DNA of 64,000 nucleotides from NCBI GenBank assembly GCA_902793435.1, contig CADBDF010000004.1:11650-75649 (forward strand). The letters are read 5' to 3'. Positions within the stretch are counted from its first letter, which is position 1; every line of letters begins with the position of its first letter. The translations under genes were made by a program, and so were the position numbers. The notes below the pieces were generated by a model. That model was not told the origin of the DNA. It did no database searches and saw nothing but the letters and a program-made list of their open reading frames with translations. The stretch is from an uncultured Pseudomonadota bacterium. GTDB taxonomy: Bacteria > Pseudomonadota > Alphaproteobacteria > Rs-D84. Of this stretch, positions 23,975 through 53,609 are shown piece by piece.

Positions 23975-25708
23975 TTATGCAGGCATCTTTACCGCATCAC
24001 CCATTTGGCGAACAAAATCATTTAATGCCACAACCTCTTGGGCATCAATACCCAATTTACGCAAAGTGACCGTTTTATCATTTTGTTCTTTTTCACCAAC
24101 AACGGCAATAATCGGCGTTTTTGCCAAAGACAATTCGCGAACCTTGTAATTGACCTTTTCGTCACGCAAATCTGCACGCGCACAAACACCCGCGCCGCGC
24201 AAATCCGCAACCACAGATTCCGCATATTCACGATATTTTTCGGATACAGGCACCACAACAACCGGTTCCGGCGACAACCACAATGGCAAATTACCACCTG
24301 TTGATTCTAACAAAATACCCATAAATCTTTCAATGGAACCCAACATAGCGCGATGCAACATAATTGGACGATGCTTTTCACCATCTTCGCCGATATAAGA
24401 CAAATCGAATCTTTCTGGCAAATTCATATCCAATTGCACCGTTCCGCACTGCCAAACACGACCCATAGAATCTTTCAAATAATTATCGATTTTTGGACCA
24501 TAGAAAGCGGCATCGTTTTCTGCAATTTCATATTCAATACCATTTGCATCCAACGCATGCTTTAATGCAGCCTCGGCTTTATCCCAAACTTCGTCAGAAC
24601 CGATACGGAATTCTGACAAAGGACGTGTTGCCAACTTCATCGTGATTTTTTCAAATCCAAATTTATTGTAAATATCTTTGATAAAGCGCAATATTTTTAC
24701 AACTTCGCTTTCTAACTGTTCTTCCGTACAGAAAATATGCGCATCATCTTGGGTAAATTCACGCACACGCATCAACCCAGACAAAGCACCTGCGGCCTCG
24801 TAACGATTAACCTTGCCGAATTCAGCAAAATATAATGGTAAATCTTTATACGAACGAATACCTTGACCGAACACCAACATACAACCCGGACAAGACATAG
24901 GTTTCACACAGAACACTTTACCATCTTGGGTTGTTCCTGAATAATTATGCGCACCATATTTTGCCCAGTGACCAGATTTTTCCCACAAACATCTGTCCAT
25001 CACAGACGGCGTAGAAATTTCCATATAGCCGGCCAATTCCTGACGATGACGAATATAATCAATCAAATGACGATAAATCTTATATCCCTTGTCATGCCAA
25101 AATACTGCACCTGGTGCATATTCTGGTTCAAAATGGAACAAATCCATATCACGACCTAACTTACGATTATCGCGTTTTGCGGCCTCTTCCTGCATTTTCA
25201 AGAATTCGTCTAATTCTTCTTTGCTGGCAAATGCATCAACATAGATTCTTTGCAACATTTTATTTTTAGAATCGCCCTTCCAATATGCACCTGCAACGGA
25301 ACGAATTTTGAAAGCATCGCGTGGTAAATCTTTGGAACTTTCCACATGTGGGCCGCGACACAAATCCGTAAAATCACGAAAAGAATACACAGACAATTTT
25401 TCGCCATTGGCATCGTATTCATTTAACCATTCCATTTTATATGGTTGATCATGGAATAATTCTTTGGCTTCATCCAAACTAACAATTCTTTGTTCGAAAC
25501 GACCATTTGATTTAATCAAATCGCGCATTTCTTTTTCAATTTTTTCAAAATCATCTTCACTGAATCTGTAATCGGTATCAAAATCATAATAAAATCCGTT
25601 TTCAATAGCCGGACCACCCGCAAATTTAATATCTGGGTGTAATTTTTTAACCGCAGCCGCCATAACATGTGCCAACGAATGACGAATCAATTCAATAGGA
25701 TAAGACAT
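23975..25708 (-). CDS. thrS: Threonine-tRNA ligase (short form lacking the TGS domain)
   Basis: RHSLAH, DLCRGPHV, GAYWKG, KPMSCPG, RVREFTQDDAH, HRAMLGSIERF. Confidence 0.97.
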   Translation of the reverse strand: MSYPIELIRHSLAHVMAAAVKKLHPDIKFAGGPAIENGFYYDFDTDYRFSEDDFEKIEKEMRDLIKSNGRFEQRIVSLDEAKELFHDQPYKMEWLNEYDANGEKLSVYSFRDFTDLCRGPHVESSKDLPRDAFKIRSVAGAYWKGDSKNKMLQRIYVDAFASKEELDEFLKMQEEAAKRDNRKLGRDMDLFHFEPEYAPGAVFWHDKGYKIYRHLIDYIRHRQELAGYMEISTPSVMDRCLWEKSGHWAKYGAHNYSGTTQDGKVFCVKPMSCPGCMLVFGQGIRSYKDLPLYFAEFGKVNRYEAAGALSGLMRVREFTQDDAHIFCTEEQLESEVVKILRFIKDIYNKFGFEKITMKLATRPLSEFRIGSDEVWDKAEAALKHALDANGIEYEIAENDAAFYGPKIDNYLKDSMGRVWQCGTVQLDMNLPERFDLSYIGEDGEKHRPIMLHRAMLGSIERFMGILLESTGGNLPLWLSPEPVVVVPVSEKYREYAESVVADLRGAGVCARADLRDEKVNYKVRELSLAKTPIIAVVGEKEQNDKTVTLRKLGIDAQEVVALNDFVRQMGDAVKMPA

Positions 25709-25763
25709 ATTAACTACCTCTAACTTTATTTATATTTGTTTAATTTTTTTGAAACTGTTTTTG

Positions 25764-25792
25764 ATTATAATACGCACCATTTTTTAGTGCAA
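25764..25792 (-). promoter_or_regulatory. Sigma70 promoter P2 of thrS
   Basis: TTGCAC-17 bp-TATAAT on minus strand. Confidence 0.65.
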
Positions 25793-25801
25793 GCAGAACC
25801 C

Positions 25802-25861
25802 TTAGACCCCCGCGGGGGTTGTGCAAGTCAAAGTAGTAAAGAATATTTTTTTCAACAACAT
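25802..25861 (-). CDS. Thr-rich leader peptide MLLKKIFFTTLTCTTPAGV upstream of thrS
   Basis: 5 Thr codons within 7 codons; ATG 6 nt after a -10 box; followed by GC-rich alternative hairpins. Confidence 0.75.
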   Translation of the reverse strand: MLLKKIFFTTLTCTTPAGV

Positions 25862-25867
25862 ACCACT

Positions 25868-25896
25868 ATTTTAAGACTTTACATATTAAAAGTCAA
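25868..25896 (-). promoter_or_regulatory. Sigma70 promoter P1 of thrS leader
   Basis: TTGACT-17 bp-TAAAAT. Confidence 0.75.
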
Positions 25897-25907
25897 TACC
25901 ATGATAT

Positions 25908-25937
25908 AAAAAAAAGCGGGAAAACCGCTTTTTTTTT
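25908..25937. terminator. Intrinsic terminator
   Basis: A8-gcgg-gaaaa-ccgc-T9 after the hemolysin III family gene. Confidence 0.75.
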
Positions 25938-26715
25938 ATATTAAACACGCAACTGTTGGGAAATCGATGATACTACCAAACAACACAGCAAAAAAGAAAC
26001 ACACCGACCCACCAATAACAAACAAATGCCACAACGCATGAGAAAACCGCATACGGCGCCACAGATAAAATATTACACCAATCGAATAAGACAAACCACC
26101 CGCCAACACAAACCACATTCCACGATGAGATATTGTTTGAATCATGGCTGGTAAAATCCAAAGCAATGCCCAACCCATAATCAAATATAACACAACAACC
26201 CATTTTGGTTGCTGTTTGGGATTTTTAAATTTCATTATTGCGCCAAAAATAACAATCGCCCACAACACACCAAACATAGACCACCCCAGTCCCATATGAT
26301 GACATCTATTTAAATTCACCAATAAAAACGGTGTATATGTTCCGGCGATTAAGGCATAAATAGCGATACTGTCCCATACCTCGAAAAAGCACTCACTCTT
26401 TTCGCCAATCATCGCATGACACATTGTTGAACCAAAATATAAAAAGAACATTGTTGCACCAAATATAGAACAAGAAACAACCGCCCATACATTATGATAC
26501 AACACCGCATAGGCAACCAACATCGCCAGTCCCGCAATTGCAAGACCAATACCAATTCCATGCGTTAAAATATTCAATACCGATTCACTATGCGTCACCG
26601 GTCTTTCCCAACGGAACAAACCAGTCGCACGCAATACACGCAACAAAGTTGATGCATGTGAATCTTTTTTTACTGCGCGCAATTTTGCTTTTATTTCTCT
26701 CTTTGATTTTGTCAT
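25936..26715 (-). CDS. PAQR/hemolysin III family membrane protein (TrhA/YqfA-like)
   Basis: E...N.LTHG.G, S...H, D..AIY.LIAGTYTP, HALWHLFV. Confidence 0.92.
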   Translation of the reverse strand: MTKSKREIKAKLRAVKKDSHASTLLRVLRATGLFRWERPVTHSESVLNILTHGIGIGLAIAGLAMLVAYAVLYHNVWAVVSCSIFGATMFFLYFGSTMCHAMIGEKSECFFEVWDSIAIYALIAGTYTPFLLVNLNRCHHMGLGWSMFGVLWAIVIFGAIMKFKNPKQQPKWVVVLYLIMGWALLWILPAMIQTISHRGMWFVLAGGLSYSIGVIFYLWRRMRFSHALWHLFVIGGSVCFFFAVLFGSIIDFPTVACLI

Positions 26716-26716
26716 A

Positions 26717-28294
26717 TTATTTTAATGCCCCCTGCACTCTTTCCTTTACACGATTTTCACCCATCACTTGCATCACAGAATATAAATCAGGTGTATTTGT
26801 TCGACCAGTTAATGCAACACGCAAATTCATTGCGACATCACCATTTTTAATTCCTAATTTTGTTGCAATAGCGACAATTTTATTCCACCAAGTGTCTTTA
26901 TCATCAGCAATATTAAATGTGGATAAAAATTCATTTAACGCATCTTTGTTAAATTCAAATTCACGATTCGCATTAAACAAATTATCCCAAAAATATTCAA
27001 CCTCAGCCAAAGTTTGTTGCCATGTAATAAAATCTTTACGAATACGTTTTGGATTATCGCGTTCAATAGACAAAACATTACGTAAATATTGCACATCGGC
27101 AACCTGGTCTTTACGCACAGAATCTGCATAATTTTGCGCCCAGTCAATAATACTTTTAACCAATGTATCCACAGGCATTTGTGCAATATTTTCTTTGGCC
27201 CACCACTCTAATTTTTTCATATCAAATAATGCACCGGACATTGGTATCTTTTTTGGACGAAACTCATAATCCCAAATAGATTTAACCGCACCTTTTAATT
27301 TAGATTCTTCATAACCCGATGCAATAATATTAAACAAATATTCCAACACCGCATTGGTCGGCCACCCCGCCGCCAACAAATTTGCAACATTGGATTCTGG
27401 GTCATGTCGCTTTGATAATTTACGTTGTTTTCCTGTATCTGCATCAATTGTATCCAATGTCGATGTATGGATATAAAGTGGCGGCGTCCAACCCATCATA
27501 CGAAACAACTGATAATGCAATGGCAAAGACGACAACCATTCTGCCCCACGCACAACATGTGTTGTCCGCATAAAATGATCATCACACAAATGTGCAAAAT
27601 GGTATGTTGGCAAACCATCATTTGATTTTATCAAAACCAAATCTTCATTATTTTCCGGAAAAGAAATTGAACCGCGCACCGCATCTTTACAAAAAATACG
27701 TTGTGCCGGATTACCTGTTGAATACAAACGAATCGATGGAACCTCACCTTTATCCAAATGCGCAATAATATCTTCGTCTGTTAAATCGCGGTCGCGTGCA
27801 AATTCACCATATATCCCGGTTGGGAAACCCGCCGCGGTTTGACGATTACGTATTTCTTCCATTTCGTCCGCAGTTAAAAAGCAAGGGTATGCCAATCCCC
27901 GTGCCAACAAATCCGCCGCAACTGAATGATAAATATCGCGACGTCTGGATTGATAATACGGGCCATACTTTTCATCGTTATTATAAGAGAGCCCAAATTT
28001 ACTTAATGAATCTATAATAATTTTTACAGCATCGGCAACTTCGCGTTTAGTATCCGTATCTTCAATACGCAACATAAACACACCACCCGATTGTTGTGCT
28101 AATTTTGAGTTTATCAAAACCTGATACAAACCACCAATATGCATAAATCCAGTTGGACTGGGTGCGAATCGGGTGACAAAAGCCCCCTCTGGCAAATTAC
28201 GTTCCGGGAATTTTTCCTCTAATTCCTGCAAAGTATATTTTGGTTTTCCACCCAAAACTCGTTCTATCAAATCAGGTTTTAATCCATTACGCAT
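26717..28294 (-). CDS. gltX: Glutamate-tRNA ligase
   Basis: TRFAPSPTGFMHIGG, RIEDTD, PTYHFA...DDH, KLSKR. Confidence 0.95.
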   Translation of the reverse strand: MRNGLKPDLIERVLGGKPKYTLQELEEKFPERNLPEGAFVTRFAPSPTGFMHIGGLYQVLINSKLAQQSGGVFMLRIEDTDTKREVADAVKIIIDSLSKFGLSYNNDEKYGPYYQSRRRDIYHSVAADLLARGLAYPCFLTADEMEEIRNRQTAAGFPTGIYGEFARDRDLTDEDIIAHLDKGEVPSIRLYSTGNPAQRIFCKDAVRGSISFPENNEDLVLIKSNDGLPTYHFAHLCDDHFMRTTHVVRGAEWLSSLPLHYQLFRMMGWTPPLYIHTSTLDTIDADTGKQRKLSKRHDPESNVANLLAAGWPTNAVLEYLFNIIASGYEESKLKGAVKSIWDYEFRPKKIPMSGALFDMKKLEWWAKENIAQMPVDTLVKSIIDWAQNYADSVRKDQVADVQYLRNVLSIERDNPKRIRKDFITWQQTLAEVEYFWDNLFNANREFEFNKDALNEFLSTFNIADDKDTWWNKIVAIATKLGIKNGDVAMNLRVALTGRTNTPDLYSVMQVMGENRVKERVQGALK

Positions 28295-52328: not shown

Positions 52329-53609
52329 ATGTTGGACATAAAATTTATTCGCGAAAATCCAGACATCGTAAAAAACGCATGTCGTGTTAAAAATTTTCCA
52401 GATATCGTTGATGATTTATTAAATCTGGATACACGTGTTCGCGAATTAAAGACAATCACGCAAACAAAAACTGCTGAAAAAAATAAAATTTCAAAGGAAA
52501 TTCCAACGGCTGCTGACAAGGCACCTTTGATTAAACGTAGCAAGGAAATCGGCGAAGAAATTGCTGCTGACATGGCGGAATTGGCGGAAAAAGAGATTTT
52601 ATTAAATGATTTAATGCACCGCGTCCCACAAATTCCAGACGCATCCGCACCAATAGGCGCAGACGATTCGGCAAACGTGGAAATAAAACGCGTTGGCAAC
52701 CCACGCAATTTTGATTTTTCACCACGCGCCCAATGGGATTTACTGGATATGAATAATTGGTGGGCACCCGAAAAAATTGCTGGCATCTGTGGCACCCGTA
52801 CATACTGTCTGTGTGGCGAAGCCGCTGAATTAGAATTGGCTGTAGAAACTTTCGTTATTCAAAAATTAATAGCCAAAGGATTTAAATACATTGAATGTCC
52901 ATCTATCACAAAACCCCAAACAATATTTAACGCTGGGCATTTTATGGGTTCAGACATGTCCGTTATGAACGATGATGTGTTTATGCTAACTGGCACTGAC
53001 AGATGCTTGGCTGGAACTGCCGAAATTATATTGAATTCATTGCATGCTGACGAAATTTTATCAGAAAACGATTTGCCAATAAAATACGCCGGTTTTTCAC
53101 CCTGCTTTCGTAAAGAGGCTGGTGCAGCCGGTCGCGACACACGTGGATTGGTGCGTTTCCATCAATTTAACAAGGTTGAACAATATATATTCTGCAAACC
53201 GGAACAATCTGACGAAATGCACGAATTATTGTTAAACAATCTGTGTGAAATTATGGAAGATTTGGAATTACCATATCGTGTAATTGCAAACTCAACCGGC
53301 GACATGGGATTTAACAAAGTTAAAATGAACGATGTAGAGGCATGGTTCCCATCGGAAAACACATATCGCGAATTAGGTTCTTGTTCATCAATCGGGACTT
53401 TCCAGGCACGCAGAACAAATACCCGCTATCGCGAAAACGGAACAAATGATGTTAAATTTGTTGCGACATTAAATAATACCGGAATTGCCCTGCCACGCGC
53501 ATTGGTTCCAATAATTGAAAACCACCAAAATGCAGACGGCTCTGTAAATATTCCAAAAAAATTACAACCATTAATGGGTGGCAGAACAAAGATTGGTGGA
53601 AAACATTAA
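52329..53609 (+). CDS. serS: Serine-tRNA ligase
   Basis: MLDIKFIREN, GTAE, FRKEAG..GRDTRGL.R.HQF.KVE. Confidence 0.97.
   Translation: MLDIKFIRENPDIVKNACRVKNFPDIVDDLLNLDTRVRELKTITQTKTAEKNKISKEIPTAADKAPLIKRSKEIGEEIAADMAELAEKEILLNDLMHRVPQIPDASAPIGADDSANVEIKRVGNPRNFDFSPRAQWDLLDMNNWWAPEKIAGICGTRTYCLCGEAAELELAVETFVIQKLIAKGFKYIECPSITKPQTIFNAGHFMGSDMSVMNDDVFMLTGTDRCLAGTAEIILNSLHADEILSENDLPIKYAGFSPCFRKEAGAAGRDTRGLVRFHQFNKVEQYIFCKPEQSDEMHELLLNNLCEIMEDLELPYRVIANSTGDMGFNKVKMNDVEAWFPSENTYRELGSCSSIGTFQARRTNTRYRENGTNDVKFVATLNNTGIALPRALVPIIENHQNADGSVNIPKKLQPLMGGRTKIGGKH

Follow-up and report, generated by a model that had tools for sequence, protein, structure and literature searches.

Why does a short, threonine-rich reading frame stand between two promoters directly upstream of the gene for threonyl-tRNA synthetase? 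We encountered this arrangement on the minus strand of a 64,000-nt stretch of DNA (the window, to whose first base all coordinates refer unless stated otherwise) from a gut alphaproteobacterium with a reduced genome of 0.9 Mb, Candidatus Enterousia. The accessible text of one report assigns Enterousia to Rs-D84, an uncultured order of gut Alphaproteobacteria with reduced genomes (PMC12306168). The synthetase gene, thrS (23975–25708, minus strand), encodes a threonine–tRNA ligase of 577 amino acids, assigned using Pfam and NCBIfam (TIGR00418; 675 bits, cut-off 384), and is preceded by a Shine–Dalgarno sequence, AGAGGT (25716–25721, minus strand), 7 nt 5′ of its ATG.

Further upstream, a HlyIII-family gene (ORF 25936–26715, Pfam HlyIII) ends at an intrinsic terminator recognized from sequence as a GC hairpin flanked by A and T runs (25908–25938, minus strand), which isolates the promoter that follows. 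This promoter, P1 (25868–25896, minus strand), combines TTGACT (25896–25891), a 17-nt spacer and TAAAAT (25873–25868); it gave 10 of 12 matches in a promoter scan, and its −35 and −10 columns are kept in the alignment of relatives (A1). Six nucleotides past the −10 box, an ATG at 25861 opens a frame of 19 codons, five of them for Thr (MLLKKIFFTTLTCTTPAGV and a stop codon; 25802–25861), on the same strand as thrS and 93 nt 5′ of it. The frame has no Shine–Dalgarno sequence because the gap between −10 box and ATG leaves no room for one. A first-pass annotation of the window had read promoter, start codon and Thr-rich frame in this way, and each element was recovered at the coordinates given.

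The last two Thr codons directly adjoin a hairpin, HP1 (ACCCCCGCGGGGGT, ACCCC(C)-loop-(G)GGGGT; 25806–25819, minus strand), whose 5′ arm consists of the last Thr codon and a Pro codon; the leader stop codon lies 2 nt past the stem. Behind it follows a second promoter, P2 (25764–25792, minus strand; TTGCAC at 25792–25787, 17-nt spacer, TATAAT at 25769–25764), which is absent from the promoter-scan list because its −35 box matches at only three of six positions. A second hairpin, HP2 (GCACU/GGUGC; 25774–25790, minus strand), sits within the −35 box and spacer of P2, and an A-rich stretch of 55 nt separates P2 from the thrS Shine–Dalgarno sequence. The overlap of a second promoter with a hairpin (given as GCACTA/TGGTGC) had likewise been proposed, and both are present at 25792–25764. 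The annotation had also stated that a classical U-tract terminator is absent, and a terminator scan of the source genome agreed, finding none between the leader and thrS. For AACCCCC, it had offered two alternative partners: the pairing with GGGGGT stands as HP1, whereas the pairing of AACCC with GGGTT after the stop codon is not conserved and, among the upstream regions compared, occurs only in the source genome, with AACC/GGTT in one relative (L003). An Rfam search of the thrS upstream region returned no family at an E value of 0.1 or better, and no T-box riboswitch was returned on 24500–27500 at E values up to 10.

Conservation and codon selection in the Thr leader

The Thr leader is not a chance feature. 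Among 40 thrS loci from the source genome and its relatives, 30 carry it, eight lack it (L028–L033, L038 and L040) and two are cut by contig ends. A covariance model of the leader, R1, found matches in 124 of 151 genomes of the order, and these adjoin thrS wherever the locus was checked. The genus is covered completely (107 of 107 genomes), as are families f5 (two genomes) and f6 (three); f1 gave 115 of 121 and f2 three of four, with none in the 19 genomes of f3 or the one genome of f4. In a class-wide draw, only one of 149 genomes outside the genus gave a match, MIVFIAKFITTTTTTP 5′ of a short ThrRS. Public contigs with a ThrRS 84–90% identical to that of the source genome bear the same leader among the matches listed, and a global pattern scan matched at least 120 stretches, of which 80 loci were read, nine of them with thrS. 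The gene upstream of the leader varies from locus to locus, and the leader therefore travels with thrS. Thr-codon conservation in relatives had been set beforehand as the refutation test of the annotation; both the ORF and its Thr codons proved to be kept.

Leader statistics were compiled from 62 distinct leaders (alignment A4), with several counts made on 61. Because the ATG lies about 7 nt past the −10 box (7 nt in 35 of 61 leaders; range 3–10), the thrS leader mRNA is predicted from promoter geometry to be leaderless, with its start at or beside the AUG. The frame is 18 codons long in 37 of 61 leaders, and 46 of 61 contain five or six Thr codons. Along the Thr run, the first two bases of the codons are nearly fixed and the third varies freely: the four codons preceding the final two for Thr have entropies of 0.35–0.98 at bases 1 and 2 and of 1.33–1.49 at base 3 (62 leaders). 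All 62 distinct leaders use ACC for the last Thr and GGG for Gly, synonymous sites that HP1 holds frozen. In the source genome, the Thr run is broken by Leu and Cys, and this copy appears to be a somewhat decayed version of the leader.

The CCCC and GGGG of HP1 are invariant in all 62 distinct leaders, and in each of them the last Thr codon and the Pro codon form the 5′ arm. HP1 displays no covariation, with three of its five pairs invariant and the other two departing by unpaired cells only, so its role as RNA rests on the invariant synonymous sites and on an A–U to U–A change between Thr and Ser leaders. Directly past the stem, at least five U occur within 8 nt in 33 of 55 leaders, and seven of eight positions are A or U in 40 of 55; the tail in the source genome is poor, with at most three U in eight. 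HP1 would be only a borderline terminator. Mutually exclusive antiterminator and terminator hairpins were not found, RNAalifold giving HP1 only, and folds computed with the HP1 5′ arm withheld contained no conserved alternative pairing. In the 55 thrS leaders, P2 has the −35 consensus TTGCGG and the −10 consensus TATAAT, with a 17-nt spacer in 51. HP2 starts 4–13 nt past the leader stop and covaries, the pairing being kept while the sequence changes (GCGA/UCGC, GCGG/CCGC, GCAC/GUGC and others). HP2 has an MFE of −5.79, its shuffles one of −2.01, and no more than five of 100 shuffles reach its stability in 40 of 55 leaders.

As a separate observation on the enzyme, the ThrRS of the source genome (23975–25708) is without an N-terminal TGS domain; the domain is retained in the ThrRS of L029, L037 and L039, which belong to other families of the order and two of which still have the Thr leader.

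Cognate leaders before other synthetase genes

The strongest evidence for a sensing role of the Thr leader comes from its cognate twins. Weak secondary R1 matches pointed to leaders with Ser runs 5′ of serS, exemplified by MKNRFVFFSSSSSSPLGE, with the same hairpin, and by MKHEFVFFSSSSSPLGE, with the hairpin UCCCC-N4-GGGGA. Ser leaders precede serS at 9 of 10, 7 of 15 and 16 of 18 loci in three sets checked, and a Ser covariance model, R2, matched 72 of 151 order genomes, a count that includes cross-matches on thrS leaders. A single base in each codon separates the Ser from the Thr runs (ACN to UCN), suggesting that the module was duplicated and given a new target. Weak R2 matches pointed in turn to His-His leaders 5′ of hisS. 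The His-leader pattern is present in 66 of 151 order genomes, and 10 of 12 loci checked were true, lying 5′ of hisS. One belongs to the source genome itself (contig 8, 15317–15382, outside the window), where a P1-type promoter is followed after 6 nt by the ATG opening MTVNKLHFYHILHHAHWASCF, 77 nt 5′ of hisS. The identities of thrS, serS and hisS are all above NCBIfam cut-offs.

All synthetase loci of five relatives were then covered by a scan that passed 120 ORFs through a custom filter, which variants can escape. Trp leaders with a single Trp codon (ending in CWRIAA) lie 5′ of a trpS-type gene in three of the five and Tyr leaders (containing FFYYSFY) 5′ of a tyrS-type gene in two, and one Leu-rich leader candidate was found, in G050. 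TrpRS, TyrRS and LeuRS were assigned by the Pfam family of the search and not scored separately; the assignment also leans on N-terminal motifs that we take to be theirs. Candidates near the Ile and Met synthetase genes of these relatives are doubtful, and none were found at the Asp/Asn/Lys, Ala, Arg, PheS, Glu, Cys, Pro or Gly synthetase genes. In every leader type, the sensing codons directly adjoin the 5′ arm of a short GC hairpin.

No leader stands upstream of serS, trpS, tyrS or leuS in the source genome; the Ser leader is carried by many of its congeners. Its serS (window position 52329, plus strand) directly follows the preceding gene, the Ser leader having been lost there or never present. 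Ala and Pro versions on the CCCC hairpin were also considered and rejected: a search of 131 family genomes for CCCCNNNGGGGGNNTAA yielded no types other than Thr and Ser, the remaining matches being unrelated repeats, terminators and gene ends. Two repeats may be recorded here. A scan for CCCC-N-GGGG hairpins brought up a GC-rich repeat family of the source genome, centred on tccccctCCCCAnnGGGGcggaat and found on contigs 1, 2, 3, 5, 7, 9 and 13 (for example, C1:65893 and C5:16142). In G167 and G183 (family f1), CCCCAAGGGGGGAGTAA occurs 8–9 times per genome on many contigs and is probably a dispersed repeat.

The same design was observed in Bacteroidota, in three Flavobacterium MAGs (L111, L125 and L127) and one Bacteroidales MAG (L155), near 701–722 of each locus. 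These leaders end in TTTTPFGV or TTTTTP, contain ACCCC-N4-GGGGT and are followed by a conserved ACATATCATCC motif. They lie 82–209 nt 5′ of an ORF starting with MKVLKFGGTS, which we take to be aspartokinase/homoserine dehydrogenase (thrA). In our literature search, this Bacteroidota Thr leader design was not found described.

Possible modes of action of the leader

Cognate codon runs stand at the matching synthetase genes; ribosome readout of charged tRNA is therefore very probable, and the Thr frame very probably lets ribosomes report the charged-tRNA supply. The initial proposal of a leaderless Thr-codon leader that senses charged tRNA-Thr is thus supported by conservation, codon periodicity and the cognate Ser, His, Trp and Tyr versions. 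Sensing by ribosome stalling, which we infer from the anatomy together with established knowledge of attenuators, is well supported, unlike the output step. Our preferred reading, which we consider reasonably likely, is that a ribosome-mediated sensor of charged tRNA-Thr, with HP1 as a weak stop or pause and P2 as a basal promoter, tunes thrS. The P1 transcript would begin at or beside the AUG of the frame of ~18 codons. When Thr-tRNA is scarce, a ribosome translating this frame would dwell on the Thr run, and its front edge would hold HP1 open; with ample Thr-tRNA, it would finish and leave, and HP1 would close. Closed HP1, most likely acting as a weak terminator or pause, would together with the A/U-rich stretch behind it limit the P1 share of thrS expression, and P2 would supply an unregulated basal level of the essential ThrRS. 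Timing is a difficulty here. A ribosome tightly coupled to the polymerase would cover HP1 stalled or not, HP1 would stay uncovered if the ribosome stalled on the first of six codons in a run, and the expected direction of control does not obviously result from a simple one-hairpin terminator. If a coupled ribosome masks HP1 regardless, either coupling is not tight here or the effect is post-transcriptional.

For the output step, we rank a stop or pause at HP1 with basal transcription from P2 first, followed by mRNA stability or translation, then Rho and then promoter interplay. With sensing unchanged, a post-transcriptional output would have the stalled ribosome or open HP1 stabilize the P1 mRNA or aid thrS translation, comparable to erm-type induced stability or to mycobacterial poly-Cys leaderless ORFs. 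It would sidestep the coupling and timing problem, a canonical terminator was not found in the source genome, and the accessible text of the mycobacterial report provides a precedent in which stalled ribosomes unmask a ribosome-binding site (10.1101/834739). We nonetheless regard this output as unlikely: the leader has no conserved pairing partner in the ribosome-binding site or UTR of thrS, predicted folds of the leader region differ among species, and leader–UTR duplexes average −7.83 kcal/mol for cognate and −6.96 (s.d. 2.4) for non-cognate combinations. A long-range interaction between the 5′ portion of the leader and the UTR of thrS was accordingly discarded as a candidate, cognate combinations being no better than non-cognate ones. 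Rho-dependent attenuation, in which Rho loads onto naked leader RNA unless a stalled ribosome hides the loading site, as at tnaC, would suit the G-poor Ser and Thr runs and the missing U-tract terminator, and Rho is encoded in the source genome. It appears improbable, however, as the best C/G ratio in 78-nt windows has a median of 1.26 in leaders versus 1.27 in 354 control upstream regions, and a Rho loading site sought by C over G was dropped because composition gave no signal.

Lower still in our estimate stands promoter interplay alone, with P1 and its mini-gene as a separate unit whose traffic or pausing modulates P2, the sole source of thrS mRNA. P2 is as conserved as P1, HP1 lies close to its −35 box (~12 nt upstream), and the hisS leaders, which have an extended −10 box (TGnTATAAT), also count in its favour. 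Yet the Thr codons and HP1 are retained in L034, L035 and G267, from other families, where P2 and HP2 are not recognizable, and we know of no mechanism by which ribosome stalling acts on a downstream promoter, which weighs against such interplay. We give hardly any credence to the view that there is no regulation and that the frame either encodes a small hydrophobic protein or is an ORF arisen by chance where promoter sequence is conserved. Its great brevity and merely presumed translation speak for this view, but in five separate cases the codon run has changed to match the amino acid of the synthetase encoded downstream.

Beyond the preferred reading of a ribosome-mediated Thr sensor at thrS, we tentatively entertain a broader possibility: throughout their lineage, Enterousia and its relatives may possess leaderless leader-peptide switches with a single hairpin, individually assigned to synthetase genes (Thr, Ser, His, Trp, Tyr and perhaps Leu), each with an internal basal promoter and with a mechanism that is neither a four-segment attenuator nor ribosome-binding-site unmasking. 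If true, this would amount to a ribosome-read replacement for T-boxes, retargetable by single-base codon changes (ACN to UCN). A 0.9-Mb genome with few regulators could then still keep every synthetase in step with its cognate charged tRNA, at a cost of about 100 bases and a ribosome. With one scaffold and different codons, the parallel modules for Thr, Ser, His, Trp and Tyr represent a natural experiment, and the compact one-hairpin design with its embedded promoter poses a clear mechanistic question.

Comparison with known leader peptides

Leader peptides before synthetase genes are already known (pheST; Streptomyces thrL–thrS); our literature search found no description for Enterousia or Alphaproteobacteria. 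At Escherichia coli pheST, the pheM leader peptide is rich in cognate codons, and low charged tRNA leads to more synthetase; pheM has a ribosome-binding site, alternative hairpins and a U-tract terminator. The thrS leader is likewise rich in cognate codons and stands before an aminoacyl-tRNA synthetase gene but, unlike pheM, it is predicted to be leaderless, has a single hairpin that overlaps the 3′ end of the ORF, lacks a clear terminator and is followed by an internal promoter. The thr operon leader (Rfam family Thr_leader, RF00506) senses Thr-tRNA through a run of Thr codons and serves biosynthesis genes as a classical four-segment attenuator. It shares the Thr-codon run with the thrS leader, whose region matches no Rfam family (E 0.1).

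In bacilli, the accessible text of one study places His codons in a short ORF upstream of hisS paralogs; that leader was found through a premature terminator, belongs to Firmicutes and accompanies a main hisS that uses a T-box (PMC2965389). The mycobacterial poly-Cys ORFs resemble the thrS leader family as leaderless sensory ORFs and, as far as the accessible text describes them, a stalled ribosome blocks RNA structure there, and several loci respond to one amino-acid signal (10.1101/834739). They control cysteine metabolism genes by unmasking the ribosome-binding site (10.1101/834739), whereas such pairing was not found at thrS. As a precedent in favour of our preferred reading, the accessible text on Streptomyces lividans describes a single hairpin and no U tract for the leaderless thrL (MKRVRPFLETTPGFVPAR) that precedes thrS, along with Streptomyces leaders at alaS, trpS and leuS (alaL, trpL2 and leuL2; PMC8079986). 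It concerns a different phylum, thrL has only two Thr codons, and a comparative or mechanistic test and a second promoter are not described in that accessible text (PMC8079986). The S. lividans trpS leader given there (PMC8079986) ends in LWRAA, close to the CWRIAA ending of the Trp leaders described above.
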